63,693 nt of DNA from an uncultured Erysipelotrichaceae bacterium (GTDB lineage Bacteria; Bacillota_I; Bacilli_A; RFN20; CAG-826), in assembly GCA_900317295.1 (NCBI GenBank), contig ONGB01000001.1, positions 1-63,693 on the forward strand, in the 5' to 3' direction. The notes under the pieces were generated by a model that made no database searches, was not told where the DNA came from, and worked only from the letters and a program-made list of their open reading frames with translations. Both the position numbers and the translations under genes were made by a program. Of this stretch, positions 181 to 24,305 are shown one piece after another. The first letter of the stretch is position 1; each line of letters starts with the position of its first letter.

Positions 181-200
181 TACTTGACGATACTTGACGA
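181..200. repeat. tandem direct repeat TACTTGACGA x2, each copy holding a TTGACG -35-like hexamer
   Basis: Read directly: tacttgacga tacttgacga, about 130 nt upstream of the first lipoprotein gene. Confidence 0.6.
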
Positions 201-241
201 GACTTATCCTATTTCTTTTATGCGCGTTCCATATATAAAAA

Positions 242-255
242 AGGAAGCGCTTTCA
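242..255. promoter_or_regulatory. cre-like (CcpA-type) palindrome AGGAAGCGCTTTCA
   Basis: Two mismatches to TGWAANCGNTNWCA. Central AAGCGCTT is a perfect dyad. Lies upstream of the operator at 297..312. Confidence 0.4.
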
Positions 256-296
256 CAAACCCATTGACCCCGAATAGTAAGGCGTTCATAATATTA

Positions 297-312
297 AGGA
301 AACCGATTTCCT
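297..312. promoter_or_regulatory. LacI-family operator candidate, copy 1 (AGGAAACCGATTTCCT)
   Basis: 16-bp dyad with central CG, 19 nt upstream of the ATG at 332. Identical copies at 9177..9192 and 20142..20157. Confidence 0.6.
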
Positions 313-331
313 AAATATGGAAAGGAACAAT

Positions 332-2347
332 ATGAAAACCAAACTTCTCCTGACTCTGGCCGCCTCTGCTTTGCTTCTCGCCGCCTGCGGTGGGACTCCG
401 AAGCCGACCCCGACCCCCTCTTCCGAAGAGACCACTTCCGAGACCACCTCGGTCGAAAGCGAAGATTCCTCTGAAGAAGAAGTGACCTCCGAAGGAACCT
501 CTGAAGAAACCACCTCTGAGGAAGCCACTTCCGAAGGCACCTCCGAGGAAGCGACCTCGGAAGAGACCACCTCCGAAGAGTCTTCCGAAGAATCCTCCGA
601 AGAATCCTCCGAATCCTCCTCTGAAGAAGAACATGAGCCCTCCGCGAAAGCCGTCCTCCGCAACATCGGCACCGGAGAGGAAGTCGCCTCCATCACCGAA
701 GGCACGGGCGCCTATAAGCTCGTCGTCGAATTCGAGAACCTCCCCGATGGCGCTGACCCCGCCTCCGCGACCTATACCTTCCCGAAATCCACCGGGATCG
801 CTCGCGTCCAAGAGCAAGCGGGATTTGCCGCCAACGAACGTCTATTCGTCGTCGAATTCGCCGGCATGATCAATGAGACCATCAAAGTCGACTTCAACCT
901 CGGCGGCGATCATCTCGTCTTCAACACTCCGTTAAAACTCGATATCGCCAAAAACGATGCCCTCTACACGAAGATTGGCACCCCCGAAGATTTCGTTAGC
1001 AAAGTCCTCACCGCGACCACTGGCCGCTTTGAGTTGACCGCCAATCTCGACCTCGGCGGCATGGATGCCCCGGGCGCGAAATCCAACGTCACCTTCAATG
1101 GCCTTTTAGACGGCAACGGCCACACGGTTTCCAACTTCGTCGCCGCCCCGCTAGATGATGGGACCACCGGCGGATTATGGACCCACGTCGGCAGCGGTTT
1201 GATCCGCAACACCCATTTCGTCGGCACGATCAACCAGACCGCTGGCTGGGGCTCCTTGCTTGGCAAAGAAGTCCAAGAACTCGCCATCATCGAGAACTGC
1301 CTCTTCGAAGCCACCTCCACCGTCGATACCTCCGCTTTGGATTGGACCTGGCAGCGTTCCGGCATCGTCGCCGGCTTCCTTAAGGGCACCGTCCGCGACT
1401 GCGTCACCTTCAACGTGACCGGCAACGCCCAGATGTTCGATATCGCCCCCTATGCTGGCTCGACCTCGCACATCCAGAACGTCTACACCTCTTCCGCGGA
1501 GAACCTTTCCATCCCCTTCGATCCGAATGGCGGCACGCAGGAATGGTCCGTCCCCGGCGATGCTGTGGGCTGCACCTATAGCGTCGACTGGGCAACCATC
1601 GACCTAGATACCGTCAAACTCGATTCCTCCATCTGGACGTTAGCCGCCGGCGTCGCCCCGAAGCTCGCCCATGATGGCGAATCCGCGGTCGTCTTCTCCC
1701 CGGCTTTGGAAATCGCTGGCATTCCCAACTCTCTTAAAGTTGGCGAACACGCCGCGCTCACCTTCTCCCCGAAGAACTTCCCCGAGGGCGAAGTCGCCTA
1801 TTCCATCGAAAACGCCAGCAAATTGAGCGCCGCCATCACCGATGCTTCGATTGATGTTGAAGCCTTGGCGGAAGGCGATGGTTCCTTCGACCTCGTCGCG
1901 AAGATCGCCGAGACCGAAGTGGCTCGTAAAACCGTCTCCATCGTCGTCTTGGACGCCGGCGCGACCGTTGAGGTCCTCCCCGTCATCGCCCAAGGCAACA
2001 GCCCGACCAAAATCGAAGGCGCCGGCATCTGGGTCTACCTTGATAACACCGACCTTGGCATCACCGGTGCCAACGCCGAATCCATCCTTGCCGACATCAC
2101 GATCAGCGCCACCTCGGAGAACCCGGCGGCCGCTCCGTATGTCGATGGCGGAAGCAACGCTCTCACCTATGACCACCATACGTTCGATGACTATGGCACC
2201 AACACGGTCCGCCTCTTCATCTTCATGAACGCCGGTGTCCCCACCGATTGGGATATGACCATCGAAGTCACGATCAAGCTCACGATCAGCGGCCAAGAAT
2301 ACGCGAAGACGATTTCCTTCTTCAACGGGGTCTACCAACAAGCCTAA
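332..2347 (+). CDS. surface lipoprotein with acidic S/E/T linker, GLUG-like beta-helix module, Ig-like region and an uncharacterised C-terminal module
   Basis: Signal peptide MKTKLLLTLAASALLLAAC with lipobox. AAGGA RBS 5 nt before the ATG at 332, so this start is preferred over 317. Motif FNGLLDGNGHTVSNF is shared with 12552..13916 and 13923..15290. Confidence 0.8.
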   Translation: MKTKLLLTLAASALLLAACGGTPKPTPTPSSEETTSETTSVESEDSSEEEVTSEGTSEETTSEEATSEGTSEEATSEETTSEESSEESSEESSESSSEEEHEPSAKAVLRNIGTGEEVASITEGTGAYKLVVEFENLPDGADPASATYTFPKSTGIARVQEQAGFAANERLFVVEFAGMINETIKVDFNLGGDHLVFNTPLKLDIAKNDALYTKIGTPEDFVSKVLTATTGRFELTANLDLGGMDAPGAKSNVTFNGLLDGNGHTVSNFVAAPLDDGTTGGLWTHVGSGLIRNTHFVGTINQTAGWGSLLGKEVQELAIIENCLFEATSTVDTSALDWTWQRSGIVAGFLKGTVRDCVTFNVTGNAQMFDIAPYAGSTSHIQNVYTSSAENLSIPFDPNGGTQEWSVPGDAVGCTYSVDWATIDLDTVKLDSSIWTLAAGVAPKLAHDGESAVVFSPALEIAGIPNSLKVGEHAALTFSPKNFPEGEVAYSIENASKLSAAITDASIDVEALAEGDGSFDLVAKIAETEVARKTVSIVVLDAGATVEVLPVIAQGNSPTKIEGAGIWVYLDNTDLGITGANAESILADITISATSENPAAAPYVDGGSNALTYDHHTFDDYGTNTVRLFIFMNAGVPTDWDMTIEVTIKLTISGQEYAKTISFFNGVYQQA

Positions 2348-2365
2348 TCCAATCATAAACATCTC

Positions 2366-2387
2366 GGCCCTCGGTAACCCGGGGGCC
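2366..2387 (+). other. GC-rich intercistronic hairpin (9-bp stem, loop TAAC) between the lipoprotein gene and the GH81 gene
   Basis: ggccctcgg-taac-ccgggggcc. No strong T-run follows, so it is more likely a stabiliser or partial attenuator than a full terminator. Confidence 0.4.
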
Positions 2388-2409
2388 ATTTGCTCGAAAG
2401 GGGAGAACC

Positions 2410-5406
2410 ATGAACAAATCCAAATGCCTGATCATCTTAGCCGCCTTGATCCTTTCCTCGTGCGGCAAGGGAGGGAATAAACCCTCGTCTTCCTCCTTGG
2501 ACTCCTCTTCTAATTCCTCCATTTCCAGCGAAATTCATAGCGAAACCTCCAGCGAATCCTCTTCGGAGGCCACTTCGGAATCCGTTTCCTCTTCATCAGA
2601 AGAAACCACTTCGGAATCGACCTCAGAAGCGTCTAGCGAAGAGGCTTCTTCCAGTTCCGAAGCATCTAGCGAGTCTTCCTCTGAATCCTCTTCCGAATCT
2701 AGCGAGGAATCCTCTACCTCCGAAGAAGTGGTGGGGGATTTGACCTTCCTTGGGACGGAGAACCTCACGATCGTCAAAGGGCATTATTTCGATCCCCTAG
2801 AAGGTGTGTCCGTCCAAGAAGACGAAACCGCCCATATCGAAGTGAAAGGCTATGTCGATTATGGGAAAGTCGGTAGCTACACCTTGCGTTATTTCGCTTC
2901 TTCTTCCCTGGGAAGTGGGGAAAAGACCCGCACGATCAAAGTCGCGGAAGGCAGCTACACCCATCCCGCGTTTAATCGTAGCCGCGGGGCGGATCGTTCC
3001 GTTTCCTTAGGCAGCGGATCCTACCGCACCGGGCAGGTTCCCGAAGGCCCGGCGGGGGATGGAAACCAATTCCATCTCGCTCCTTTGCCGACGAATGTCG
3101 ACACCGAAGTCCTTAATCGCGGCATGCTCCCATCCAATCAGTGGTGGTCGGGCTTTGCCTATGACAACCTTGGAGGCGTCACCTTAGGCCAACTCAACCC
3201 CTTGAGCTTTGGCTATATGTCCTCCGGCTTGCACCTAAGCTACCGCGGGGAAGGGTTCACCCAGTATTTCGAAGTCGCGGATACCTTTGGGAAGAACCAG
3301 ACCACGATGTCGAACTTCACCCCGACCTTCCAAGACCTCTTCGTCAAACCTTCTTCTTTAGAAAACGACTATTTCACCTCGATCATCGATTATGATGACG
3401 TCTCGGTCAAAATCGCCGCGCGGAATAGCCAAAACGGCGAGGACGAGATGGTGTCCACCTTCGTCCAAGGCTCCCCCTTCGTCGTTTCCGAATTCAAGAA
3501 CCCGAGCAGCGTGAACATCAACCTCCGCATCCCCGCGGTCACCCAACCCTATCGCTTCTACGATAAGCAGGGGAACGCGGTCACCTCATCTTATGATGGG
3601 GATGGTTTGATCATCTGCTTGCCCCAAGCCCATTACGGGTATGAGACGACCTATCCCTCCACCGCGGTCGGCGCGGCCCTATATCAAGACGTTTATTACT
3701 ACCTGTCCCTACCCAGTGGGAGCCATATTGACTTCGAGCAGGGCGATCATCCCTCCGCGGATTTCAAAGCTCATTTAACGATCCGCCTTGGCAATGGCAA
3801 CGCGCTCGGCGTCGCCTCCTCGAATACCCTAGACGGCGCGAAAGCCTACGCCTCCGCGGGGCAGTCCTTCTTGATGGAGGGCGGCTACGCCTATGAAGGG
3901 GCCGTCAATAGCGGACTTAAGACCACGACCTTCTCCTATAAGGTCCGTCATTTCGGCGAGCAAAATGATCCCTTGATGAGCCTATTGCCCCATCAATGGA
4001 AGAAACTTAACGAGACCCTCCCCATCGCGGGTTCCCTCCCGACCAAACGCGGTTTGACCAAAATCTATCGCGGAAGTTCTTTCTCCATGAATACCCCCTT
4101 CCATGGGTTGACCCCCTCTTTCGCCGGGCTATCCTCTAGCCTCCCCGAGATGGAGGGCTACCTCAATAAGATCATCGAGGACACCGTCCCCGGCGACGTG
4201 TCCATGACGTGGCAAGATAGCCAGAAGAACTATTACAACGCCCCCGGGCCCTACTGGTGTTCCAAGGCCCTTTATCCCTTGGGACAAGGGCTTATCATCG
4301 CCGACCAAATGGGCCTGACCTCCATCAAAAACACCATGAAATCCCGCCTGAAATCCCTTTTGGTGGATTGGTTCACCTATAGTGGGAACGATGACGCGCG
4401 TTGGTTCTATTACGATGAAGCGGTGGGAAGCCTCTATTATTCCGTCGACAATTTCTCGACGAACTCCAGGCTTAGCGACCATCACTTCACCGCGGGGTAT
4501 CTGGTCTCCGCCGCGGCGATCCTAGCGATGTATGATCCGGACTTCCTCCGCGACTATGGGGCGATGGCGAAGCTATTGCTTTTGGATTACATGAATTATG
4601 AAGGCAATCCCTCCTATCCCGCCTTCCGCGGCTTTGATGCCTATGACGGTCATAGCTGGGCGGATGGCAAAGGCGACTTCGGCGACGGGAACGACCAAGA
4701 ATCCTGTGGCGAGGCTCTCCATTCCTGGGCCGCCGGATATTTCCTCGGCGCCGCGCTTGGGGAGAAAGAGATGATGGAGGCCGCGAGCTGGGGCTTCTCC
4801 CTCGAATTAGAGGGCATCAAGCAATACTGGTTCAATTACGATGAGGATAACTGGATCCCCTCGTTGGCGGATTACACCCATGCCTTAGGCATCGTCTGGG
4901 GCGCGAAGAACGACTACGCGACCTGGTTCGGTTCCAACCCCGAATTCATCTACGGCATCCATTTCCTCCCAACCGGCGAATATCTATCCTCCTATGCCTT
5001 CGGAAACGAAGAGAAATCGATGGTGGGCAAGATCTACCAGGAATTCCTCTCCAAAGTCGACGGGGCGCCGCGCTGCTGGCAGTCCAACATGTGGGCGATG
5101 CAGGCGATCTATGATCCCGCGACCGCGAAATCGGTGTTCGATGGATCGAAGATCTACGCCGACCAATACGCGGATGAGGCCGCGGGATCCTATTACATGG
5201 TGAACGCGCTTAACGAACTGGGGCAGAAAGCCATCGACGTCGAACTCGAAGGCGAGCTCGCGCTTACTTCGTATATCAAAGGAAGCATGCGGACGATCCT
5301 CGCTTGGAACCCCACGGGTGAAGCGAAGACCTATTCCTACACCGTCTCCGGCGTCAAGAAAGAAGCAGTGGTCGCCGCGCATAGCTTTACTTTGTTAGCG
5401 ATCTAA
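2410..5406 (+). CDS. lipoprotein endo-beta-1,3-glucanase, GH81 family, with Ser-rich linker and N-terminal Ig-like domain
   Basis: Lipobox ILSSC. GH81 signatures SDHHFTAGY (4477..4500) and GHSWADG...NDQESCGEA with the E-x3-E pair (4693..4716). Confidence 0.85.
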   Translation: MNKSKCLIILAALILSSCGKGGNKPSSSSLDSSSNSSISSEIHSETSSESSSEATSESVSSSSEETTSESTSEASSEEASSSSEASSESSSESSSESSEESSTSEEVVGDLTFLGTENLTIVKGHYFDPLEGVSVQEDETAHIEVKGYVDYGKVGSYTLRYFASSSLGSGEKTRTIKVAEGSYTHPAFNRSRGADRSVSLGSGSYRTGQVPEGPAGDGNQFHLAPLPTNVDTEVLNRGMLPSNQWWSGFAYDNLGGVTLGQLNPLSFGYMSSGLHLSYRGEGFTQYFEVADTFGKNQTTMSNFTPTFQDLFVKPSSLENDYFTSIIDYDDVSVKIAARNSQNGEDEMVSTFVQGSPFVVSEFKNPSSVNINLRIPAVTQPYRFYDKQGNAVTSSYDGDGLIICLPQAHYGYETTYPSTAVGAALYQDVYYYLSLPSGSHIDFEQGDHPSADFKAHLTIRLGNGNALGVASSNTLDGAKAYASAGQSFLMEGGYAYEGAVNSGLKTTTFSYKVRHFGEQNDPLMSLLPHQWKKLNETLPIAGSLPTKRGLTKIYRGSSFSMNTPFHGLTPSFAGLSSSLPEMEGYLNKIIEDTVPGDVSMTWQDSQKNYYNAPGPYWCSKALYPLGQGLIIADQMGLTSIKNTMKSRLKSLLVDWFTYSGNDDARWFYYDEAVGSLYYSVDNFSTNSRLSDHHFTAGYLVSAAAILAMYDPDFLRDYGAMAKLLLLDYMNYEGNPSYPAFRGFDAYDGHSWADGKGDFGDGNDQESCGEALHSWAAGYFLGAALGEKEMMEAASWGFSLELEGIKQYWFNYDEDNWIPSLADYTHALGIVWGAKNDYATWFGSNPEFIYGIHFLPTGEYLSSYAFGNEEKSMVGKIYQEFLSKVDGAPRCWQSNMWAMQAIYDPATAKSVFDGSKIYADQYADEAAGSYYMVNALNELGQKAIDVELEGELALTSYIKGSMRTILAWNPTGEAKTYSYTVSGVKKEAVVAAHSFTLLAI

Positions 5407-5446
5407 CGAGGAAACTTTACGAAACAAAAAGCCCGATAAAATCTAT

Positions 5447-5475
5447 TTGGAAACCGCTTTCATAAGGTTTATAAT
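5447..5475 (+). promoter_or_regulatory. sigma70-type promoter TTGGAA-17-TATAAT with embedded degenerate operator GGAAACCGCTTTC (5449..5461)
   Basis: Hexamers and 17-nt spacing read directly. The half-degenerate copy of the 16-bp dyad lies between -35 and -10. Confidence 0.55.
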
Positions 5476-5520
5476 CAATACACATAATCATCAATTGAAA
5501 AGCAAAAAAGGAGCTTTGAA

Positions 5521-6732
5521 ATGAAGAAAAGATTAATGGTCGTCATGGGTCTAGCCGTCGCTGCCCTTGGCATCGGCGCCACCGCCGCGGTATTGGGAAC
5601 CACCCCCGCCGTGTTCACCCGCGCTACTGGCGAAACCAGGTCGATCGTCTTGACTGCTGCCGATTTTTCTGACGGCAACGGTGATTTCAGCAAAGCTGGT
5701 CTTTCGTTCCACTATGAAAAGATCTCGGTGGTTGGAAACACCGTCACCATTGCAACGAGCGGGACGCTTCAAATGACCATGTCCCACTATTCTGGTGAGT
5801 CTGTTAGTGAAGGCGGGCTTATGGGCAATGGTTTCACTGCCTTGGCCTTCACTGACTACTATCAAGATGGTGTAGGTTCTGTTGCTTTCGGTAAAAAAGG
5901 CACTGTAGATGACATCCTCGCCACTTATACCGTTGCAGCAAGCATGGATTTAACTCATCAAGATGGTGGAGCCGAAGTTCCGAGCGATAACCGTCGCAGA
6001 ATTCACATTAATGCCGCGCACACACTTTCTTTCACCAAAATTACCTATAGCTATGAGTGTGTCGAAGCTAAACCGACCATCGAAATCTCTGGTGATCAAT
6101 TTGTTGAAAAGAACGCCACTGGCAACTTGACCGCTACTACCGAGCGTGTTGATGGGTCCGCTACTTACAACTGGACTTCTTCGAATACTGATGTTGCCAC
6201 TGTTGTTGGTAATGGCAAGTCCGCTACCGTTACCGGCGTTGCCGCTGGCGGCGCCACGATCACCGTCAAGGCTATTGTGAATGAAGCCGTTGTTGCTACC
6301 GACACCTTTGCCCTTACGGTCACCGACCCCGCTTCTAAGGTCTACATGGATTGGAACAAGAGCAACAAAGACCCGAACCACGGTCCTCTCCAGTTCGATG
6401 GCGCGGGCTTAATTATTGGTCTTGATCTTACATCCGTTGGTCGCAACGAAGCTTGGGTCAATGATAATAAAGATAAGATTTCGTTCGAATTTAGCAGAGA
6501 GGGCTGGAATTTGGTCAACTGGCAAACCCCACCCTGGTCCCCGTTTCCTGGTTTCTATGGGTCCTTCCCGAGTGCTGATTTCTCGACCCTGACATCGATC
6601 ACCATTAGGATGCCAAACGACCATGATGTCCTGGCGGTTGCTGAGATGACCCTCTCCTGGTCTGGCAGCACCTATACTGTCTTGACCCTCAACGGCCAGT
6701 CCTTCGCCGCCTATATGGGCATTGCGGCCTAA
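5521..6732 (+). CDS. secreted protein with Big_2 (bacterial Ig-like) domain and an uncharacterised C-terminal module
   Basis: AGGAG RBS. Signal or anchor sequence MKKRLMVVMGLAVAALGIGATAAVLG with no lipobox Cys. Big_2-like segment YNWTSSNTDVATVVGNGKSATVTGVAAGGATITVKA. Confidence 0.75.
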   Translation: MKKRLMVVMGLAVAALGIGATAAVLGTTPAVFTRATGETRSIVLTAADFSDGNGDFSKAGLSFHYEKISVVGNTVTIATSGTLQMTMSHYSGESVSEGGLMGNGFTALAFTDYYQDGVGSVAFGKKGTVDDILATYTVAASMDLTHQDGGAEVPSDNRRRIHINAAHTLSFTKITYSYECVEAKPTIEISGDQFVEKNATGNLTATTERVDGSATYNWTSSNTDVATVVGNGKSATVTGVAAGGATITVKAIVNEAVVATDTFALTVTDPASKVYMDWNKSNKDPNHGPLQFDGAGLIIGLDLTSVGRNEAWVNDNKDKISFEFSREGWNLVNWQTPPWSPFPGFYGSFPSADFSTLTSITIRMPNDHDVLAVAEMTLSWSGSTYTVLTLNGQSFAAYMGIAA

Positions 6733-6745
6733 TCCAAAACCCTAA

Positions 6746-6772
6746 GAAAGAGCCGGCCACCCCGGCTCTTTC
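6746..6772 (+). terminator. rho-independent terminator
   Basis: gaaagagccgg-ccacc-ccggctctttc followed by T-rich sequence. Confidence 0.7.
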
Positions 6773-6795
6773 ATTCATTTATCCACGAATTCCCT

Positions 6796-8106
6796 ATGAA
6801 ATCCCGCCTCTTTAAGACCAATGCTTCCGCCACTTTTGTTCCGGCGCGTTTTCTTGACGAGACGGAAAAAACGGATGGGGAAGTAGTGGTCCGCCCTATC
6901 TACAAACAAACGATCCTCGGCTACGGGGGAGCCTTCACGGATTCCTCGGCATCGTTATACGCGAAACTAGACGAGAAAACGAAGAAGGAATTCATCCGCC
7001 TCTATTTCTCCAAAGAGGGACTTGGCTACAACCTTGGTCGCGTGACGATTGGCTCCTGCGATTTCTCCACGGGGATGTATGACTACGCGGAGAAAGACAA
7101 TTTGTCCGATTTCTCGCTTAGCCATGATGAGAAGGCCATCATCCCGATGATTAAGGACGCGTTAAAGGAAACCTCTTTGTCTTTATTGGCCTCCTGCTGG
7201 TCGCCTTTGGCGAAGTGGAAAGATAGCCATGACAAAGACCACGGGGGACATCTATTAAAAGAACATTTCCCCGACCACGCGGAATACATGGCGAAGTACG
7301 TCGAAGGATATCGCGCCTTAGGTCTTCCCGTCGTCGCGATGACCATCCAAAACGAGCCCGCGGCCACCCAGACCTGGGAATCCTGCCTCTATTCCCCCGA
7401 GGAAGAGGCGGAGATGGCCTTATTGCTTAAGAAAAGGCTCCCGGATACCAAGATTTATGTTTGGGATCATAACCGTGACATCATGCTCGACCGTGTTAAC
7501 GGGAGCCTGTCCGTTCCCAACGCCAAAGAAGCGATCTACGGGGTCGCCTACCATTGGTATGACGGAGATAAGAACGCAGAGATCGCCAAGGTCAAAGAAG
7601 CTTATCCGGATCTGCATATCCTCTTCACCGAAGGGTGCGTCGAATTGCTTAATCTCAATAAAGATGACCCCTCCTCAGCGATCGGGACCTTCGAAAACGG
7701 CAGGCGTTACGCGGAAAACTATATCCGCGACCTGAATTATGGCAGCGAAGGCTTCCTCGATTGGAATCTCCTCCTTGATATGAACGGGGGGCCTAATCGC
7801 GTCGGGAATTATTGCGAGGCCCCGATCCTCACCGACGGGAAATCGCTCCATCCGACCTATTCCTATTACTTCATCAAACACCTATCCTCCTTCCTCCGTC
7901 CCGGGGCGAAGGTGATGGAGGTTGAGGCCCCGGAAGGCGTTCTCGCCGTGGCGGGGAAAAACCAAGAAGGCAGCCTCGCCCTCGTGCTGCTCAACCTAAA
8001 AGAGGGGAGGAATCTCTCCCTATCCATCGGGGCCTGGAAAGGTAAAATACCTTTGGGAAAAAACGAAATCGTTTCAATTGAACTGGAAGGGGTAGATCTA
8101 TGGTAA
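6796..8106 (+). CDS. cytoplasmic GH30 glycoside hydrolase (glucosylceramidase / beta-1,6-glucosidase-like)
   Basis: ILGYGGAFTDSSA, IGSCDFS, TIQNEPA (7342..7362), HWY and FTEGC motifs typical of GH30. No signal peptide. Confidence 0.8.
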   Translation: MKSRLFKTNASATFVPARFLDETEKTDGEVVVRPIYKQTILGYGGAFTDSSASLYAKLDEKTKKEFIRLYFSKEGLGYNLGRVTIGSCDFSTGMYDYAEKDNLSDFSLSHDEKAIIPMIKDALKETSLSLLASCWSPLAKWKDSHDKDHGGHLLKEHFPDHAEYMAKYVEGYRALGLPVVAMTIQNEPAATQTWESCLYSPEEEAEMALLLKKRLPDTKIYVWDHNRDIMLDRVNGSLSVPNAKEAIYGVAYHWYDGDKNAEIAKVKEAYPDLHILFTEGCVELLNLNKDDPSSAIGTFENGRRYAENYIRDLNYGSEGFLDWNLLLDMNGGPNRVGNYCEAPILTDGKSLHPTYSYYFIKHLSSFLRPGAKVMEVEAPEGVLAVAGKNQEGSLALVLLNLKEGRNLSLSIGAWKGKIPLGKNEIVSIELEGVDLW

Positions 8107-9113: not shown

Positions 9114-9140
9114 ATTTGAAAAGTCAGGTATGCTTTTCGC

Positions 9141-9169
9141 TTGCCTGTAAGCGCTTACGCGTATAAAAT
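9141..9169 (+). promoter_or_regulatory. sigma70-type promoter TTGCCT-17-TAAAAT
   Basis: Hexamers and spacing read directly. A cre-like site overlaps the spacer, and the operator lies 7 nt downstream. Confidence 0.55.
9146..9159. promoter_or_regulatory. cre-like (CcpA-type) site TGTAAGCGCTTACG
   Basis: 13 of 14 positions match TGWAANCGNTNWCA. Sits between -35 and -10 of the transporter operon promoter. Confidence 0.55.
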
Positions 9170-9176
9170 AAATTTC

Positions 9177-9192
9177 AGGAAACCGATTTCCT
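9177..9192. promoter_or_regulatory. LacI-family operator candidate, copy 2 (AGGAAACCGATTTCCT)
   Basis: Identical 16-bp dyad, 17 nt upstream of the ATG at 9210. Confidence 0.6.
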
Positions 9193-10640: not shown

Positions 10641-10642
10641 GC

Positions 10643-12534: not shown

Positions 12535-12551
12535 CTTTGGGAGGTATGAAA

Positions 12552-16708: not shown

Positions 16709-16722
16709 AAGGAGCGCCCAGC

Positions 16723-18156
16723 ATGGAAAAACTCACCCGAGAAGAAAAGAAAGCCCGCCGGCTGGAACAGCGGCGCTTAGAGAAAGAGCAAGCGGCCGAA
16801 GAACGGCTTCTAGAGAAGAAGCGCGACCTCGTCTACAAAGACACGATCGCCCTGCAAAAACGCTCCGAAAAAGAAGAAAAGATCGCCCCGGCGGATTCTT
16901 TCATCTCCCTCCAGCATATCAACAAGATCTACGGCAACCACGTCCAGGCCGTCTTTGATTTCAATCTCGAGATCAAGAAGAACGAATTCATCGTCCTCGT
17001 CGGCCCCTCAGGATGCGGCAAATCGACGACCCTCCGCATGGTCGCGGGTTTGGAGAACATCACCTCCGGCGACCTTTATATCGATGGGGTCTACGCGAAT
17101 AACCTCGAACCGAAAGACCGTAACCTGACCATGGTCTTCCAAAATTACGCCCTCTACCCCCATATGTCCGTCTACACGAATATGGCGTTTGGGCTCAAGA
17201 TGCGCAAATTCCCGAAGGCCGAAATCGACCGTCGCGTCCACGCCGCGGCGAAAACCTTGCAATTAGAAGAATACCTCGACCGCAAACCGGGCGAGCTTTC
17301 CGGGGGCCAATGCCAGCGCGTCGCTTTGGGCAGGGCGATCGTCCGCGAGACCGGCGTGTTCTTGATGGACGAGCCGCTATCGAACCTCGACGCCAAACTC
17401 CGCGTGCAAATGCGCTCGGAAATCGTCGCCCTCCACGAGGCGATCGGGGCCACGACCATCTATGTCACCCACGACCAGACCGAGGCGATGACGATGGCCA
17501 CCCGCATCGTCGTCATGAAAGGCGGCTACATCCAGCAGATCGGCACCCCGAAAGAGGTTTATAACAACCCCACGAACACCTTCGTCGCCACCTTCATCGG
17601 CTCCCCGGCGATGAATATTCTCACCGCCGAATATGACCATGGCAAACTCCGCTTGGCCAATGGCTTCGAAATCGCGTTGCCGTCTTCTTTCGTCAAAGGC
17701 CACGACGCCTTCTATTTCGCCCAAGAAGCGGAAATCGAGGAGAAGATCGCCGCTCTTCGCGCGGAACTCGAAGACCCCGAGCTTGGCGAATCCCTGAAGC
17801 AAATCCATCTCGATGAGATCAATAAACTCGAGGAAAACGCCGCGAAATTCCGCCTGATCGCCGAAAGCAAATGCCATCCGATCAAATTGGGCATCCGCCC
17901 GGAGGACGTCTATGAATCCGGCGAACCGACCGAAGCCACGAAGCTCACCGCCTCGATGGAAGTGGAGGTCTTCTCCGCCGAATACCTCGGGAAGGAATAC
18001 TTCGTCCACGCCGATGTCGGCGAGGAGCGCCTCATCGCCAAACTCTCGGCGAAAAAGGACATCGCCGCCCACGAAAAGATCTCCCTCTGCTTCGACCTTG
18101 GGAAGATCCACCTTTTCGACGAAATCACCACCAACAGCATCCCCGCGGTAGAATAA
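16723..18156 (+). CDS. MsmK/MalK-type sugar ABC ATPase with a ~65-aa K/E-rich N-terminal extension and a coiled-coil-like insertion in the C-terminal domain
   Basis: AGGAG 8 nt before the ATG at 16723. Walker [10 protein letters not shown], signature LSGGQCQR, Walker [12 protein letters not shown]. Extension: [33 protein letters not shown]. Insertion: [42 protein letters not shown]. Confidence 0.85.
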
Positions 18157-18162
18157 GGGGCC

Positions 18163-18645
18163 ATGGAGAGAGGTTATTTCCTAGAAGAAGAATATCGGGA
18201 TAGCCGTAAGCGATTCACGCTATGGCTGTCCCTTTTCCTTTCGTCTATCTTGCTGCTGGGCTTAACCGTCCTCTTCGTTTTCCTTTTCCAAACGAGGGAG
18301 ACCAAGTTCTTCTTTATCCTTTTCGGCTCTATCCTCTCCGTCATCTTTCTCTTCTTCGCCTTCTTCATCGGCTTTGTATTGCTCCGTCCTTATGCGGGGT
18401 TAATGAAGCTATTTAAGGATTTGAAAGTCCGTCCGAAGAAAGAAGGGGCCATGACATTCCTTTACGCCGAAAAACAGGCGGCGACCTATTATTCCAATGC
18501 CTTTTACCCCGCGTTTTTCCAAGCGGATGGGAAGAAAGCCCGCGTTTATCTATTGGAAGAACAACTTTCCTTATTCGAAGAAGGGAAAACCTATGCATTA
18601 ACGCGCTGCCTTGATGTGGTGCTTTCCGCGGAGGAAACGCGATGA
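18163..18645 (+). CDS. hypothetical membrane protein (2 TM plus soluble tail)
   Basis: ORF with hydrophobic N-terminal half. Its stop overlaps the next start (ATGA). Confidence 0.6.
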   Translation: MERGYFLEEEYRDSRKRFTLWLSLFLSSILLLGLTVLFVFLFQTRETKFFFILFGSILSVIFLFFAFFIGFVLLRPYAGLMKLFKDLKVRPKKEGAMTFLYAEKQAATYYSNAFYPAFFQADGKKARVYLLEEQLSLFEEGKTYALTRCLDVVLSAEETR

Positions 18646-19274
18646 AAGCCCGTCTCCCCAAAGGCGCCTTGGCCCATTTTTGGACCTATAACCTCATCCC
18701 ATTTTTGATCTTGGGGTCGGGGATTTCCTTTGGGCTATACTACGCGGTGGAATCGATCGACGAATATAAAGACCACGAGAAGATCGATCTCTTCTGCGAA
18801 GGCTATTCCTTCCTCGATTCGGAACTGAAGAAAGCGATCCTCGAAGAGAATGAAGGGGTCATCTTCAAAGTGGAGACCCATGTCTATTCCCCGCATATGA
18901 GGGAAATCGCCAAGATGTACGCCGCCTATGGGGAATACGCGGACATCCTCGTCCTAACGGAGAAGGATCTGACCGATATGGACAAGGCCATCGCCACCCG
19001 TTTCCTGTCCATGGAAGGATGTTCCATCCCATCCTCCCTGACCACCTATGAATTCGAAGGCACCCCCTATGCGGTGAAGCTTTTCGATAAGGAAGACGAG
19101 GGGTATAACGCCCATTACGCTTTGGGGGATTGGCTGAAGTTCGATGCGGAATTCGAATCCCTATATTTATTGCTTAACGCCCGTAGCCAAAACATGGGTT
19201 CCCTTAACGCGAAATCCAAAAACGACGCGGGTTTGCATGCGTTTTCGACGATTTTGGAGCGGTATATCCGATGA
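18642..19274 (+). CDS. hypothetical membrane-anchored protein
   Basis: Single N-terminal TM (FWTYNLIPFLILGSGISFGLYYAV) followed by an acidic soluble domain. Overlaps both neighbours by 4 nt. Confidence 0.6.
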   Translation: MKARLPKGALAHFWTYNLIPFLILGSGISFGLYYAVESIDEYKDHEKIDLFCEGYSFLDSELKKAILEENEGVIFKVETHVYSPHMREIAKMYAAYGEYADILVLTEKDLTDMDKAIATRFLSMEGCSIPSSLTTYEFEGTPYAVKLFDKEDEGYNAHYALGDWLKFDAEFESLYLLLNARSQNMGSLNAKSKNDAGLHAFSTILERYIR

Positions 19275-20098
19275 AAAAGCCCGTCTTATATGAACCGGGG
19301 AAGCCGATCAACCGCTTCCAGATGCTAGGGAACATCCTCCGTCGGCATTTAAGCGAAGTGATGCTCGTGAGCCTGTATTGTTTCCTTTTTTCCTTGCCTC
19401 TTTTGGGTTGGGTCATCTTCTCGATCAACGTGGATTTCCTCCGCCAGGATAACGCTTACGCCATCCTCATCGTCGATGGGGTGGGGGCGTTGCTGCTTGG
19501 TGTGCTTGGTTTATCTTTCGCCGGCGGGATGCTGTTCTTCAAGAAACTGATCTTTGGCGAAGGAGCCTCCCTGAAAGAGGATTTCGCCCAGGGCATCCGC
19601 CGCAATGGGGGGCTCTTCTTCCTGATCTTCCTCGTCGTGGGGGCGCTTTATCTATTGCTCCATCTAGGACTAGGCATCACCGCGGGGATGGAAATCGATG
19701 GGGCGTGGAAAAGCGTGTTGGCTGGGGTGGAATATGCGGTGTTCTTCCTACTTTGCTTCGTGCATCTATTCATGCTGAGCGAAGCCACGATGTTCGAAGG
19801 CGGGTATTTCTCCTTATTGGCCTCTAGTTTTCGCCTATGCTTCGCCTCGTTATTGAAGGGATTGCCCATCTATTTGATGGTGATGCTCCCGTTATTGCTA
19901 TTCGAGTTCCTGCCCTTCCCGTATTTCAATCTCGCCGGGGTGCTCGTAGGGGCTTTCTTCCATTTTGGTTTTTCCTTGGCTTGCCTGACCTTATTCTGCA
20001 ATCACGTCTATGACCGCAGCGTATTCAAAACCCAATATCCGGAACTCTACCGCAAGGGGCTGGCGAAAGAAGTGGGGGAAGGTGAAAAACCCCTCTGA
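19271..20098 (+). CDS. polytopic membrane protein, possibly YesL/DUF624-like
   Basis: Five or six TM segments. Its position at the end of a sugar ABC operon is typical of YesL-family genes. The family call is by resemblance only. Confidence 0.5.
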   Translation: MKKPVLYEPGKPINRFQMLGNILRRHLSEVMLVSLYCFLFSLPLLGWVIFSINVDFLRQDNAYAILIVDGVGALLLGVLGLSFAGGMLFFKKLIFGEGASLKEDFAQGIRRNGGLFFLIFLVVGALYLLLHLGLGITAGMEIDGAWKSVLAGVEYAVFFLLCFVHLFMLSEATMFEGGYFSLLASSFRLCFASLLKGLPIYLMVMLPLLLFEFLPFPYFNLAGVLVGAFFHFGFSLACLTLFCNHVYDRSVFKTQYPELYRKGLAKEVGEGEKPL

Positions 20099-20107
20099 CG
20101 CATTATG

Positions 20108-20136
20108 TTGACGAAGGAAGCTATGCTTCCTATAAT
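20108..20136 (+). promoter_or_regulatory. near-consensus sigma70 promoter TTGACG-17-TATAAT
   Basis: Hexamers and exact 17-nt spacing read directly. Confidence 0.7.
20116..20130. promoter_or_regulatory. inverted repeat GGAAGC-TAT-GCTTCC inside the promoter spacer
   Basis: Perfect 6-bp arms. Its half-site resembles the GGAAGCGCTTTC element at 243..254. Confidence 0.4.
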
Positions 20137-20141
20137 AGTTT

Positions 20142-20157
20142 AGGAAACCGATTTCCT
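20142..20157. promoter_or_regulatory. LacI-family operator candidate, copy 3 (AGGAAACCGATTTCCT; 18-bp dyad with flanking T/A)
   Basis: Identical 16-mer, 5 nt downstream of the -10 and 14 nt upstream of the ATG at 20172. Confidence 0.65.
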
Positions 20158-20171
20158 AGGAAAGGGCAAAT

Positions 20172-23100
20172 ATGGGAAATTATCGTTATGAGGCGGGTCG
20201 CTTCGTCATCCGCGATTATCAAAACCAAAAGACTTTCGCATCCTTCTTGCCGGCGCTTGCGGGCGAGCAAGGAAAACCCCTTTGGGCGTTCTATGCCAAC
20301 GTCGGCCAGGCGATGGGCGGCTTTGGCATTTCCTCCAAAGAGACGCCGATCACCCCTTTCGATTCCGCGAATCTCGCCTACGCCAACATTCCCTTAAAGG
20401 GTTTCCGCACCTTCGCTAAAGTCGACGGGGCTTATTTGGAACCTTTCCTCCGCCAAAGAAAAGCCAAACGGGAGATGAGCCTTTCCCAAAGCGACGTCGA
20501 GATCTATGAAGAAAACGATTCCTTCTCCATGAAGGTCGCCTATTACGGCATCCCTTCCCGTTCCTATGCTGGGCTAGTCCGCGAAGTGACTTTCGTCAAC
20601 CGCGCTGATCACGCGATCGAACTCGAATTCATCGACGGGCTTCCCGTTTTCTTCCCCCATGGGCTAAGCAATTTCTGCTACAAGGAGCTCGTCTCTTTGA
20701 TGGCTGCCTACTGCGAAGTCCATCGTTTGGAAGAGAAGACCCCATTCGTCAAATTCAAGACCTCGACCGGCGACCATGCCCAAGTCGAAGAGGCGAAAGA
20801 GGGCAACGGTTTCTTCGCGATCGATCAAAACGGCGATCTCCTTTCCCCGATCGTCGACCCGGAAATCGTCTTCGCCCACGATGCGACCAATCTTCTCCCG
20901 GAAGGCTATTTGGACGCCTCTTTAGAAGAAACGCTTGGGAAATCGCAGCAAATTGAAAACAAATTGCCCTGCGCCTTCCTCGCGAAAAAGTTGTGCCTCG
21001 CCCCGGGCGAATCCTATTCCTATGCCGCGGTATTCGGTCATTGGGAATCCCTCCAAGAATACCTAGACGCGCTTGAAGGGCTTTCCTTTGAGACGATTCG
21101 CGGGTTCCGCAAGGAGAATGAGGAATTACTTTCCTCCCTCCTCTCTCCGGCCACTTCGGAAACGGCTTATCCCTTGTTCGATGCATGCTTGAAGCAAAGC
21201 TATCTCGACAATAACCTCCGCGGTGGTTTCCCGACTTTGCTAGGCAACCAAGTCTATTACCTCTATGGCAGGAAGCACGGCGATATGGAACGCGACTATA
21301 ACGCCTTCGATATCCCGTCTTGCTATTACTCCTCCGGCCCCGGGAACTTCCGCGACGTCAACCAGAATCGGAGGAACGATCTCTTCTTCGCCCCCTTCGT
21401 CAAGGACTACAACATCAAGACGTTCTTCTCTCTCCTCCAAATCGACGGGCAGAACCCATTGACGGTCAAACCGAACTCCTTCTCCGCGCCGGAAAAGGTC
21501 ATCGATTCCTTGCCTTCTGGAATGGTCAAAGACAAAGCCGCTTTGGCCAAATTGCTGAACGATTTCTGCCCCACGGACTTATACTCGTTATTGCGCGATC
21601 AATGGCAATTAGAGAAAAAAGAAGCGGATTTTGCATTCAAAACGATCCTCAACGCCGCTTCTCAGCACGTCGAAGCCTGCTTCGGCGAAGGCTACTGGGT
21701 TGACCATTGGACCTATAACGTCGATCTATTAGAAAACTATTCTTCCATCTACCCCGATCAAGAGGAAAACCTCTTCTTCGGATCCGATTATCCCTATTTT
21801 CATTCCCCGGTCTATGTGCAGCCGCGGACGGAGAAATATTGCCTCGTCGAAGAAGGCAAAGTCCGTCAATATGGGGCGATCGACCTCAAGGGTTTGAAGG
21901 AAGAATGCGAACGCGAGGGCATCGACATCCGCAAGACCGATTGGCTCCGCGACGAAAAAGGGAACATCATCCACACGAACCTCGCCGGGAAGATCCTTCA
22001 CACCATCTATGTGAAGTTCTCCACCCTCGATAGCCTCCAGATGGGCATCGAGATGGAATGCGAGAAGCCGGGTTGGAATGACGCGATGAACGGCCTCCCC
22101 GGATTATTCGCTTCCGGGTTATCCGAAAGCATCGAATTGCTGCGCCTCCTCCGTTACGCGAAGGCCCATTTGGCGCCTTTTGGCGGACGTTCCCTCACCT
22201 TGATGCGTGGCCAAGCGGAATTCTTCCGCGGGCTAGAAGAGGCGATTAAGGAGTTCGAATGCAAGAAGCTGACCCGTTTCGCTTATTGGGACAAGGCGAC
22301 TTCCTTAAGGGAAGCCCTCCGACTCCGTTATCGCCGCCAGGGCGAAGCGGAAATGGTCTCCTTCCCCTTGTCCGAGGCTTTGGATTGCCTAAGCAAGATG
22401 GAAGCCATCCTCGTCGACGGCATCGTTCGCGCGAAAGAAGCGGGGCAGGGCATCCTTCCCTCCTATTTGATCTACCGTTTGGAGAAATACGAGAAGACCG
22501 GCCACATCAACCATTTGGGTTATGAGACCGTCAAGCCGTTTTCTTTCGTCTTAGAAACGATCCCCCCGTTCCTCGAAGCCAGCGCACGGGCTTTGAAGCT
22601 CGGCGATGAATTCCTTAAGGAAAAGGATTTGGACGCGATCAAAGCCACCTCGCTTTATGACGACAAACTCCATTTCTATAAGACCTGCGGCGACATCGAT
22701 GACGCCCCCTTCGAAATCGGGCGCGTCCACGCCTTCACCAAGGGCTGGCTGGAGAGGGAATGCAACTTCCTCCATATGGATTACAAGTTCCTTCTCGGCT
22801 TGCTAAAAGGTGGCTTCCTCGATCGCTTCTATGACGAAGTGAAGACCAACTGGACCCTGCATCTAGACCCCGAAGTCTATGGCAGGAACCCCGTGGAAGC
22901 GAGCAGCTTCATCGTCCCGACCTGCAACCCCGACGCGAGCAAGCATGGGCGCGGCTATTTCGCCAGGCTCACCGGGGCGAACGCGGAATTTCTCAACATG
23001 TTCGTGTTGCTTTTCGCCGGGGAACGCCTCTTCTCTTATGAAAACGGCGAACTGAAGTTCCATCTCCGCCCATTGCTTTCCTCCGCCTTCTTCGACGCGG

Positions 23101-23291
23101 AAGGCAAGGCGAGCTTCACCTTGTTCGGAAAAACGAAAGTCACCTACGTCAATCCTTCTAGGAAAGACCTGAAGGGCAATGAAACGCTTCGATACACCAT
23201 CGAAGGGAAAACTTATGAAACCGTGGGGGGCAAAACCGCGGAAGATATCCGCGAAGGCCGAATCAAAGAAATCATCGTGGAGGTTCTCTGA
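20172..23291 (+). CDS. cytoplasmic GH94-clan glycoside phosphorylase-like protein; candidate beta-1,3-(oligo)glucan phosphorylase (GH149/GH161-like)
   Basis: 1039 aa with no signal peptide. FRDVNQNRRND (about 21348..21380) and KPGWNDAMNGL (about 22070..22096) resemble the RDxxQD and DWNDxxN motifs of GH94-type phosphorylases. Lies in a beta-1,3-glucanase locus. Confidence 0.55.
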   Translation: MGNYRYEAGRFVIRDYQNQKTFASFLPALAGEQGKPLWAFYANVGQAMGGFGISSKETPITPFDSANLAYANIPLKGFRTFAKVDGAYLEPFLRQRKAKREMSLSQSDVEIYEENDSFSMKVAYYGIPSRSYAGLVREVTFVNRADHAIELEFIDGLPVFFPHGLSNFCYKELVSLMAAYCEVHRLEEKTPFVKFKTSTGDHAQVEEAKEGNGFFAIDQNGDLLSPIVDPEIVFAHDATNLLPEGYLDASLEETLGKSQQIENKLPCAFLAKKLCLAPGESYSYAAVFGHWESLQEYLDALEGLSFETIRGFRKENEELLSSLLSPATSETAYPLFDACLKQSYLDNNLRGGFPTLLGNQVYYLYGRKHGDMERDYNAFDIPSCYYSSGPGNFRDVNQNRRNDLFFAPFVKDYNIKTFFSLLQIDGQNPLTVKPNSFSAPEKVIDSLPSGMVKDKAALAKLLNDFCPTDLYSLLRDQWQLEKKEADFAFKTILNAASQHVEACFGEGYWVDHWTYNVDLLENYSSIYPDQEENLFFGSDYPYFHSPVYVQPRTEKYCLVEEGKVRQYGAIDLKGLKEECEREGIDIRKTDWLRDEKGNIIHTNLAGKILHTIYVKFSTLDSLQMGIEMECEKPGWNDAMNGLPGLFASGLSESIELLRLLRYAKAHLAPFGGRSLTLMRGQAEFFRGLEEAIKEFECKKLTRFAYWDKATSLREALRLRYRRQGEAEMVSFPLSEALDCLSKMEAILVDGIVRAKEAGQGILPSYLIYRLEKYEKTGHINHLGYETVKPFSFVLETIPPFLEASARALKLGDEFLKEKDLDAIKATSLYDDKLHFYKTCGDIDDAPFEIGRVHAFTKGWLERECNFLHMDYKFLLGLLKGGFLDRFYDEVKTNWTLHLDPEVYGRNPVEASSFIVPTCNPDASKHGRGYFARLTGANAEFLNMFVLLFAGERLFSYENGELKFHLRPLLSSAFFDAEGKASFTLFGKTKVTYVNPSRKDLKGNETLRYTIEGKTYETVGGKTAEDIREGRIKEIIVEVL

Positions 23292-23292
23292 T

Positions 23293-24267
23293 ATGAAGAA
23301 ATTCACCCCCCTGCCTTTGGTGATCATGCTCGCGGGCTTAGCCGGCTGCAGCGCCTCGATCATCAATCCGGACTCGAAAAAAGATAGCTCCGTGCCCACC
23401 TCGGAAAGCGAAAGCGGCGACCCCTTGCATTCGTCTTCCGAAACTTCTTCGGAATCTGCCTCGACTTCTTCCGGCACCTCCGATACCTCCGCCTCGACCA
23501 GCTCTGGCGGAGAAACGGGCTGGAATTTGTGGTGGAGTGATGAGTTCGACGGCACCTCGCTCAATAAGTCGAATTGGGAACCCCAAATCGGGGACGGCTC
23601 CAACTATGGGGTCTACCAATGGGGCAATGGCGAAGCGGAGTATTACCGCGAAGAGAACGCCACGGTCGCCGACGGCGTCCTCACCATCACCGCGAAGAAG
23701 GAATCCTTCAGTGGCTATAACTACACCTCCGCAAGGATCCGGACCAAAGGGAAGGTCAAGACCACCTATGGCCGTTTCGAGGCGAGGATGAAGCTCCCTA
23801 ACGTTGCCGGATGCTGGCCCGCCTTCTGGATGCTTCCGGAAAGCAATTACCAAGGCCAAGGTTGGCCCTATAGCGGCGAGATCGACATCATGGAGAACAA
23901 AGGCCGCCAAGCCAAAACCACCAGCGGCGCCCTCCATTATTCCGATAATGGGGGACATACCTATCGCACCAACACTGCTACTTTGACCTCCTCGATCGCC
24001 GAATGGCATGTCTATGCCTTGGAATGGTCTTCCGAAGGGATGAAGTGGTTCGTCGACGGGAAGCAGTTCCTCATGGCCAAGAAAGAATATTGGCATCCTC
24101 AGGGCAGCGTCTATCCGACCGATGACGACGCCCCCTTCAACCAGGACTTCCATATTCTCATCAACCTCGCCATCGGCGGGCACTTCGATAACTATACCTT
24201 GCCCCCGGACAACATGATGCCCGCGGAGATGAAGGTCGATTACGTCCGCATCTACAAAGCCGCCTAA
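23293..24267 (+). CDS. lipoprotein GH16 beta-glucanase (laminarinase-type) with S/T/E linker
   Basis: Signal [38 protein letters not shown] and GEIDIMEN (23875..23898). The ATG at 23293 lies 1 nt after the upstream stop. Confidence 0.85.
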   Translation: MKKFTPLPLVIMLAGLAGCSASIINPDSKKDSSVPTSESESGDPLHSSSETSSESASTSSGTSDTSASTSSGGETGWNLWWSDEFDGTSLNKSNWEPQIGDGSNYGVYQWGNGEAEYYREENATVADGVLTITAKKESFSGYNYTSARIRTKGKVKTTYGRFEARMKLPNVAGCWPAFWMLPESNYQGQGWPYSGEIDIMENKGRQAKTTSGALHYSDNGGHTYRTNTATLTSSIAEWHVYALEWSSEGMKWFVDGKQFLMAKKEYWHPQGSVYPTDDDAPFNQDFHILINLAIGGHFDNYTLPPDNMMPAEMKVDYVRIYKAA

Positions 24268-24275
24268 GGCAAGAA

Positions 24276-24305
24276 AAAAGATCCTCGGGGAACCGAGGAT
24301 CTTTT
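24276..24305. terminator. bidirectional rho-independent terminator
   Basis: aaaagatcctcgg-ggaa-ccgaggatctttt between convergent genes. A-run and T-run flank the stem. Confidence 0.8.

Follow-up and report, generated by a model that had tools for sequence, protein, structure and literature searches.

A putative LacI-repressed beta-1,3-glucan utilization locus in an RF39/Enteromonas-like member of the Bacilli

Enzymes of glycoside hydrolase (GH) family 161 phosphorolyze beta-1,3-gluco-oligosaccharides, and their genes cluster with genes for GH16, GH30, GH1, and GH3 enzymes and for ATP-binding cassette (ABC) transporters (PMC6484121). Bacterial GH161 clusters, including that of Acholeplasma, were described by Kuhaudomlarp et al. 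in 2019, who already proposed the pathway considered here (PMC6484121). We analyzed a locus found at positions 264-24305, on the + strand, of a 63.7-kb stretch of DNA (contig ONGB01000001.1, positions 1 to 63,693; this whole stretch is referred to as the window). GH161/GH16/GH30/ABC clusters have already been described in Gram-positive bacteria, and this locus is a further example of them. We interpret it as a LacI-repressed, Gram-positive-type locus for the use of beta-1,3-glucans, either laminarin or yeast/fungal beta-1,3/1,6-glucan, in an RF39/Enteromonas-like member of the Bacilli, and we estimate the probability of this interpretation at roughly 80%.

According to this interpretation, one GH81 and two GH16 enzymes, lipid anchored and held by long acidic linkers on the outer face of the membrane, would cut the polymer to oligosaccharides, which would then be imported by an ABC system consisting of a solute-binding protein (SBP), two permeases, and an ATPase. 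In the cytoplasm, a GH161 enzyme would remove glucose units as glucose-1-phosphate, and a GH30 enzyme would remove beta-1,6 branches and/or finish the short products. Four additional surface proteins (the products of g1, g9, g10, and g3) would retain the glucan at the surface or make it accessible to the enzymes and to the SBP. Finally, a LacI protein would bind to AGGAAACCGATTTCCT sites and would be released from them by an imported oligosaccharide. An initial annotation of this DNA had put forward the same sequence of events, namely, depolymerization outside, import, and intracellular phosphorolysis. This scheme fits all the family assignments and predicted locations reported below, and the operator and the synteny strengthen it.

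Regulation, conservation, and gene content of the locus

The locus comprises 17 co-oriented genes, the open reading frames (ORFs) of which are tightly packed on the + strand between positions 317 and 24267, with intergenic gaps of -7 to 114 nucleotides (nt). The initial annotation had counted 20 genes. One of them, g5 (8100..9113, +), encodes a LacI-family repressor with a LacI helix-turn-helix (HTH) domain (PF00356) followed by a Peripla_BP_3 domain (PF13377). We found that the 14-mer GGAAACCGATTTCC is present as exact copies at positions 298, 9178, and 20143 and as a 2-mismatch copy at position 5449. It makes up the core of AGGAAACCGATTTCCT, a near-perfect palindrome with a central CG. The observed count was reached in 0/100 shuffles, and the other 39 kb of the window contained no further copy. 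A central CG is typical for the operators of LacI-family proteins.

Each of these operator copies (given here without strand) accompanies a sigma-70-like site that ranks among the best on the + strand. The sigma-70-like promoter of g1 and the GH81 gene (264..292, +; TTGACC-17-CATAAT) is followed, 6 nt past its -10 box, by the first operator (298..311, GGAAACCGATTTCC). The second operator (5449..5462, GGAAACCGCTTTCA, two mismatches) overlaps the -35 box of a promoter-like site upstream of g3 (5447..5475, +; TTGGAA-17-TATAAT). The third (9178..9191, GGAAACCGATTTCC) lies 9 nt past the -10 box of the promoter-like site of the g6-g15 operon (9141..9169, +; TTGCCT-17-TAAAAT), and the fourth (20143..20156, GGAAACCGATTTCC) lies 7 nt past the -10 box of the site serving the GH161 and second GH16 genes (20108..20136, +; TTGACG-17-TATAAT, 11/12). 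A terminator-like hairpin with an 11-bp stem follows g3 (6746..6772, +), which hence has both an operator-bearing promoter and a terminator of its own. A second hairpin (24274..24305, no strand assigned; GATCCTCGG-GGAA-CCGAGGATC), bordered by runs of A and of T and located between convergent genes, is a probable bidirectional terminator closing the locus. The predicted transcription units are g1-GH81, g3 with read-through into GH30-LacI, SBP to g15, and GH161-GH16. The GH30 gene, g4, has no obvious Shine-Dalgarno sequence. An Rfam search returned three tRNAs only and no riboswitch within the locus.

To see how the locus is conserved, the 17 proteins were compared by tblastn with GH161 loci of other genomes. 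The order SBP-permease-permease-(g9)-g10-GH161-GH16(x1-2)-ATPase-(g14-g15)-GH30-LacI recurs in about 40 species-level metagenome-assembled genomes (MAGs). A degenerate form of the operator, [GT]GAAANCGNTTTC[CA], was found 38 times in 741 kb of related loci, compared to 0.08 times in shuffles. Most often, it precedes the SBP gene by 30-200 nt, but it also occurs before GH161, GH16, and g3-like genes. The flank of this GH161-seeded scan was 10 kb; the GH81 gene lies beyond it, and a second scan was seeded with GH81. This second scan recovered relatives with 39-97% identity. GH81 relatives at least 39% identical, where their contigs were long enough, are nearly always located beside GH30-LacI-SBP, g14-g15, or GH161-GH16-ATPase, and these neighborhoods usually lie behind the same operator motif; a distant GH81 group (about 30% identity) is mostly without such neighbors. 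Because four operator copies are common to the promoters and the gene order is kept in dozens of related genomes, we conclude that the locus is a conserved regulon rather than a chance neighborhood. We also came across one variant upstream of GH161, in a public assembly (L082), which is 100% identical to the window from its position 731 only. In its positions 1-730, a gene for an AsnC-type regulator and a portion of another, unrelated gene are joined to the middle of g14 (window position 18902), and it was set aside as most likely a chimeric contig.

The host was approached through the closest relatives of its proteins. GatB, encoded in the window, is 85% identical to proteins of a "Mollicutes bacterium" and of "Candidatus Enteromonas sp.," and the nearest GH161 genes (50-68% identity) belong to MAGs of Candidatus Alloenteromonas, Enteromonas, "uncultured Mollicutes," Erysipelotrichaceae, and Bacilli. 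These MAGs come from the guts of humans, chickens, rabbits, reindeer, deer, sheep, and buffalo. We take Candidatus Enteromonas and Candidatus Alloenteromonas to belong to RF39 (family UBA660) in GTDB and, on this basis, we read the host as a putative RF39/Enteromonas-like member of the Bacilli.

The surface enzymes, the importer, and the repressor named in the initial annotation were all recovered by Pfam at the positions given there. The product of g2 (2410..5406, +) is a lipoprotein with an acidic linker, an immunoglobulin (Ig)-like domain, and a GH81 endo-beta-1,3-glucanase domain (PF17652, 1.3e-46; 159.9 bits for a cutoff of 25.6). Its nearest solved structures are GH81 chains (6fop, 2.8e-64; BhGH81 5t49, 3.6e-43), and it carries the sequences SDHHFTAGY and QESCGEA, corresponding to the conserved DHHF..GY and E-x3-E motifs of the family, which we assume to be catalytic. 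Similarly, g11 (15314..16708, +) encodes a lipoprotein combining Big_2 domains with a GH16 laminarinase-type catalytic domain, and g17 (23293..24267, +) encodes a lipoprotein GH16 laminarinase-type enzyme with a Ser/Thr/Glu linker. Both score above the PF00722 cutoff (6e-22 and 3e-21, respectively) and both harbor EIDIME, which fits the beta-bulge catalytic motif (E-x-D-x-x-E) of the laminarinase-type (GH16_3-like) enzymes. The solved-structure search covered g11 of the pair and returned ZgLamC first (4crq, 1.2e-50), followed by the Thermotoga, Pyrococcus, and Rhodothermus laminarinases; the catalytic domain of g17 is 44% identical to that of g11.

A lipobox (L-x-x-C) is present in seven proteins (g1, g2, g6, g9, g10, g11, and g17). 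These include the GH81 and both GH16 enzymes, in agreement with the surface tethering proposed in the initial annotation for its three endo-beta-1,3-glucanases. In g1 (332-640), the GH81 enzyme (2470-2730), and the g17 GH16 enzyme (23350-23600), the lipobox is directly followed by an acidic, low-complexity linker of 50-90 amino acids (aa) rich in Ser, Glu, and Thr. These linkers are presumably stalks keeping the domains off the membrane. We considered a wall-less host as the cause of lipoprotein tethering but abandoned this idea, since peptidoglycan is predicted to be present in most RF39 (PMC10868615).

Two enzymes lack a hydrophobic N terminus and are thus predicted to be cytoplasmic, as had been noted in the initial annotation from the absence of signal peptides. 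The first, g16 (20172..23291, +; 1,039 aa), had been described there as a GH94-clan phosphorylase candidate. It is indeed a phosphorylase by homology, but of family GH161 and not GH94 or GH149. It has no Pfam match, and its residues 10-1036 give a full-length alignment with two GH161 phosphorylases of solved structure, 9qqk and 9h8v (E = 6e-193). By contrast, the E values against GH149 (6hq6, 3.5e-9) and GH94 (6ggy, 0.03), together with a score of 76 bits against the NCBIfam GH149 equivalog model (cutoff, 1,150), ruled out these two families. The sequence GWNDAMNG at residues 634-641 aligns with GWYDALNG of 9qqk and follows the clan motif G-W-N/Y-D-A-L/M-N-G; by analogy with GH94 and GH149, we assume its Asp to be the catalytic residue. 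We therefore annotate g16 as a putative beta-1,3-glucan/oligosaccharide phosphorylase. An identical protein occurs in several independent metagenome assemblies, and our literature search retrieved no publication on 9qqk ("GH161A").

The second, g4 (6796..8106, +), is a GH30 enzyme (PF02055, 157 bits, 8.5e-46) with QNEP and FTEGC motifs. Its nearest solved relative is the SrfJ/glucosylceramidase-type enzyme 2wnw (1.4e-76), ahead of 5ngk (1.5e-39), and it scores 179.5 bits against the equivalog model of BT3312-type endo-beta-1,6-glucanases (GH30_3), well under the cutoff of 700. Hence, the family and the cytoplasmic location given in the initial annotation hold, but the beta-1,6 debranching activity assigned there is only one option: since the nearest relative is of the SrfJ type and the equivalog cutoff is missed, g4 may act either in beta-1,6 debranching or as a beta-glucosidase on di- and trisaccharides.

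The importer is complete and of the CUT1 type. It is composed of a lipoprotein SBP with an SBP_bac_1 domain (g6, 9210..10640, +), two permeases with BPD_transp_1 domains (g7, 10613..11587, +, with a likely start at ATG 10643; and g8, 11587..12534, +), and a MalK/MsmK-type ATPase with ABC_tran, OB_MalK, and TOBE_2 domains (g12, 16723..18156, +). Because the solved relatives of g6 are remote (best, 9.9e-11), no ligand can be inferred from them. The ATPase has relatives up to 73% identical; it also displays an N-terminal extension rich in Lys and Glu (about 65-75 aa) and, between its OB_MalK and TOBE parts, a coiled-coil-like insertion (about 60 aa). Three genes for membrane proteins follow. The first, g13 (18163..18645, +), encodes a small protein with two predicted transmembrane (TM) segments and is not conserved in related loci. 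The single-pass protein g14 (18642..19274, +) and the six-TM protein g15 (19271..20098, +) are kept in relatives, in many of which their genes come after the ATPase gene. A distant match links g15 to the MusI family (E = 9e-7, 29 bits for a cutoff of 160), the role of which we take to be that of an extra membrane component of a maltose importer. It seems reasonable to regard g14 and g15 as likely membrane components that assist the importer.

Accessory surface proteins

Three lipoproteins of the locus share a beta-helix module. They had been called GLUG-like in the initial annotation, a label that could not be retained: no match to Pfam GLUG (PF07581) was obtained for g1, g9, or g10 even at E <= 10, and the sole hint was Peptidase_M26_N (E = 0.04) for g10. 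In g1 (332..2347, +), which probably starts at ATG 332 rather than at position 317, where the ORF opens, the module is placed between an acidic Ser/Glu/Thr linker and C-terminal beta domains; neither a Pfam family nor a solved relative was found for this protein. The product of g9 (12546..13916, +) consists of Big_2 domains and the module and is paralogous to g1 (289 aa aligned at 31% identity). The third, g10 (13923..15290, +), has an Ig-like domain and a beta-helix-like domain and belongs to a conserved, uncharacterized family of hypothetical lipoproteins of about 450-500 aa without Pfam domain. This family is the most conserved of the three, adjoining GH161 and GH16 in almost all related loci, and its profile matches g1 and g9 at the start of their beta-helix module (hhalign probability, 94-95%).

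In the AlphaFold model of g10 (predicted local distance difference test [pLDDT], 93), the Ig-like domain (about residues 30-125) precedes the beta-helix-like domain. A Foldseek comparison of this model with the PDB gave no match at E <= 1e-3, the weak beta-helix matches being pectate lyase 7xks and fucoidan lyase 7xz9, and single-sequence and profile searches of the PDB gave nothing significant. The exhaustive profile search matched 10,549 representative proteins, but the full g10 architecture was limited to about a dozen clusters. Many of the other matches listed for the profile are giant surface proteins with as many as 21 repeats of the module's N-terminal cap. These cap repeats (Y.L..DIDL...F.PIG..F.G.fDGNGh.I.N) occur in proteins of 1000-7000 aa (among P0241-P0384), and those that were scanned had no Pfam domain; they appear to form a large unannotated superfamily of surface proteins. 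Additionally, in one lipoprotein (P0366), a laminarinase-type GH16 domain (GEIDIFE) is joined to an entire module of the g10 type, and another GH16-containing protein (P0378) matches the g10 profile in six stretches.

Taken together, these data suggest that g1, g9, and g10 are most likely auxiliary surface proteins working with the GH16 and GH81 enzymes by binding glucan. We also considered an alternative in which the pathway is the same but g10, perhaps together with g9 and g1, represents a glycoside hydrolase or lyase family not yet described and would cut a linkage beyond the reach of the known enzymes. The g10 family has about 44 invariant positions, many of which are polar (D, E, H, N, K); its confidently modeled beta-helix-like domain has the fold of many glycanases and lyases, including the two lyases weakly matched; and the fusion of the module to GH16 recalls multicatalytic enzymes. 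However, neither sequence, profile, nor structure comparison gave a significant match to a solved enzyme, most of the polar residues specific to g10 are missing from the module fused to GH16 as well as from g9 and g1, and the repetition of the common part of the module in giant surface proteins is typical of adhesin or binding repeats. We thus regard an enzymatic role as unlikely and favor glucan binding. Beyond this, we advance a broader proposal only tentatively, the odds being against it: the beta-helix lipoproteins (the g10 family, g9, and g1) may constitute a new unannotated class of surface proteins for the capture or cleavage of beta-glucans in RF39-type bacteria, either as counterparts of the surface glycan-binding proteins of Bacteroidota or as a new glycanase family, and the locus may be the main polysaccharide harvester of these bacteria. 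If this were true, beta-1,3-glucan could be a selective substrate for isolating RF39-type bacteria.

The fourth accessory protein, g3 (5521..6732, +), is a surface protein with a hydrophobic segment at its N terminus that represents a signal or an anchor; only ten homologues of it were found. Its model (pLDDT, 81) displays three beta-sandwich/Ig-like domains resembling modules of S-layer proteins and adhesins, with Big_2 in the middle, and no catalytic fold. Because the model contains only such domains, g3 is most likely a noncatalytic surface protein. In the close strain L084 (94-100% protein identity), the corresponding region is longer (6634-8600) and gives two matches to g3, and homologues of about 600 aa exist (P0386-P0390). 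This indicates that the number of domains in g3 varies between strains.

Alternative substrates and the remainder of the window

Several points weigh against our interpretation. All functions are assigned from homology and genomic context, and the pairing of the repressor with its operators as well as the nature of the inducer are inferred. The many invariant polar residues of the g10 family would also suit an enzyme rather than a binding protein. The GH16 laminarinase-type enzymes can also cleave mixed-linkage glucan, as illustrated by the beta-1,3(4)-glucanase 7wwc, one of the solved-structure matches of g11, and the GH30 enzyme falls below the endo-beta-1,6-glucanase cutoff. Finally, the characterized enzyme PapP, the founding member of GH161, acts on beta-1,3-gluco-oligosaccharides with a degree of polymerization (DP) of at least 3 and does not cleave laminaribiose (PMC6484121), whereas THA_1941, another GH161 enzyme, accepts DP 2 and does cleave it (bioRxiv 10.1101/2025.04.05.647330). 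No GH1, GH3, or GH94 enzyme was found in the 63.7-kb window, the rest of which consists of housekeeping genes. Because PapP spares laminaribiose and these families are missing from the window, the laminaribiose step has no assigned enzyme unless it is performed by the GH30 or by this GH161 enzyme.

Some of these points would fit a different substrate, either cereal mixed-linkage beta-1,3/1,4-glucan or pustulan-type beta-1,6-glucan, with the GH16 enzymes acting as 1,3(4)-glucanases and GH30 as the key beta-1,6 enzyme. Indeed, some GH16 laminarinase-type relatives are beta-1,3(4)-glucanases (7wwc), g4 does match the BT3312 endo-beta-1,6-glucanase model, if only below its cutoff, and related MAGs come from cereal-eating hosts. 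However, the nearest solved GH81 relatives (BhGH81 and Rhizomucor Lam81A) and the characterized GH161 enzymes are beta-1,3-specific (PMC6484121). Furthermore, the GH30 enzyme is predicted to be cytoplasmic, so that an external beta-1,6 polymer would be out of its reach, and no GH94, GH3, GH5, or GH9 enzyme for beta-1,4 products was found in the window. We consider such a substrate quite improbable and retain beta-1,3-glucan. That unrelated sugar genes are side by side by coincidence, without common regulation, can be dismissed as next to impossible: at least four promoters and an internal terminator imply that the locus is not a single operon, but one operator is common to the four promoters, and synteny and operator are kept across about 40 species.

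The remainder of the window contains a few other features. Convergent to the locus, three overlapping genes (24333-26499, -) encode membrane proteins without Pfam families; the product of the second gene of the three (25007-25585) has a long tail of repeats rich in Gln, Pro, and Tyr. A group of nucleotide-sugar genes (34936-40116), encoding an epimerase/dehydratase, a UDP-glucose dehydrogenase-like protein (- strand), a UDP-GlcNAc 2-epimerase, and a Polysacc_synt_C epimerase, suggests surface polysaccharide synthesis. Further on, positions 44418-45947 encode a predicted lipoprotein of 509 aa (LSTSC) with a HEMGH zinc-metalloprotease motif and no Pfam family, and positions 53867-54595 (-) encode an AbiEi_4 antitoxin-type transcriptional regulator (PF13338, 1.4e-8), for which no AbiEii partner was noticed. 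Finally, at positions 55591-57163, tRNA-Ile and tRNA-Val are followed by a Fic/DOC and HTH gene (55936-56910) and then by tRNA-Thr. The Fic/DOC and HTH gene lies in a 2-kb stretch with a GC content of only 42.6%, compared to a window average of about 54%, which resembles a small piece of foreign DNA inserted into a tRNA cluster.

Comparison with described systems

Widespread in the guts of humans and farm animals, RF39/UBA660 bacteria are uncultured and genome reduced, and they have recently been linked to chicken body weight (PMC13155120). We found no literature tying RF39 to a beta-glucan locus. The locus described here provides a hypothesis for the carbon source of RF39 (laminarin or yeast glucan), for selective enrichment, and for prebiotic targeting. 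It also offers a defined putative repressor-operator pair, new GH161, GH81, and GH16 variants, and, as a biochemical target, the uncharacterized beta-helix family. To specialists of carbohydrate-active enzymes (CAZymes), the overall design will be expected rather than surprising.

With regard to the importer, the closest parallel is the maltose importer MusEFGK2I of Corynebacterium glutamicum (Henrich et al. 2013, as cited in PMC10101108), which likewise joins an extra polytopic membrane protein to a CUT1 system. However, the g15 match lies far under the family cutoff, substrate and lineage differ, and g13 and g14 have no counterpart.

At the level of the whole locus, a regulator, a transporter, and at least one polysaccharide-degrading CAZyme are encoded together, which corresponds to the definition of a Gram-positive polysaccharide utilization locus (gpPUL) (PMC5320581). 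Known gpPULs (Sheridan et al. 2016, PMC5320581), such as the mixed-linkage glucan locus of Blautia producta (PMC10318527), similarly group a regulator, an ABC importer, and CAZymes, and in B. producta, a surface GH16 enzyme yields oligosaccharides that are imported and processed in the cytoplasm (PMC10318527). Unlike these, the present locus encodes GH81 and GH161 enzymes of beta-1,3-specific families, lipoprotein enzymes with acidic linkers, and extra beta-helix lipoproteins.

The laminarin polysaccharide utilization loci of Bacteroidota (Gramella forsetii, PMC4069401; Bacteroides uniformis, PMC7553746) address the same glycan by means of surface endo-glucanases and binding proteins and also include GH16 and GH30 enzymes. 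As already stressed in the initial annotation, the present locus does not belong to this type, and no SusC-like TonB-dependent receptor or SusD Pfam match was found among the 17 proteins. Here, a SusC/SusD pair and an outer membrane are both lacking, import would rely on an ABC system, and the final step would be GH161 phosphorolysis instead of periplasmic hydrolysis by GH3.

The locus is closest to the GH161 clusters of Gram-positive bacteria, namely, those of Paenibacillus polymyxa (PapP), Bacillus weihaiensis (GH30-GH1-GH161), and Acholeplasma laidlawii (GH16-GH3-GH161 and permeases) (PMC6484121). In these clusters, as here, a cytoplasmic GH161 enzyme is encoded beside ABC permeases, GH16, and GH30, and the proposed order is the same, from outside cleavage through import to phosphorolysis (PMC6484121). 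However, most of them lack a nucleotide-binding component (PMC6484121), whereas the present locus encodes its own ATPase as well as the SBP. Conversely, no GH1, GH3, or GH94 enzyme for the disaccharide is encoded here. The present locus additionally includes a GH81 enzyme, a second GH16 enzyme, four accessory surface proteins, three membrane proteins, and a four-site LacI operator set, and its host would be an uncultured gut lineage of the RF39 type. Overall, what is specific to this locus is the RF39-type host, the in-locus ATPase, the GH81 and second GH16 enzymes, the lipoprotein tethering by acidic linkers, the beta-helix lipoproteins, and the four-site operator.

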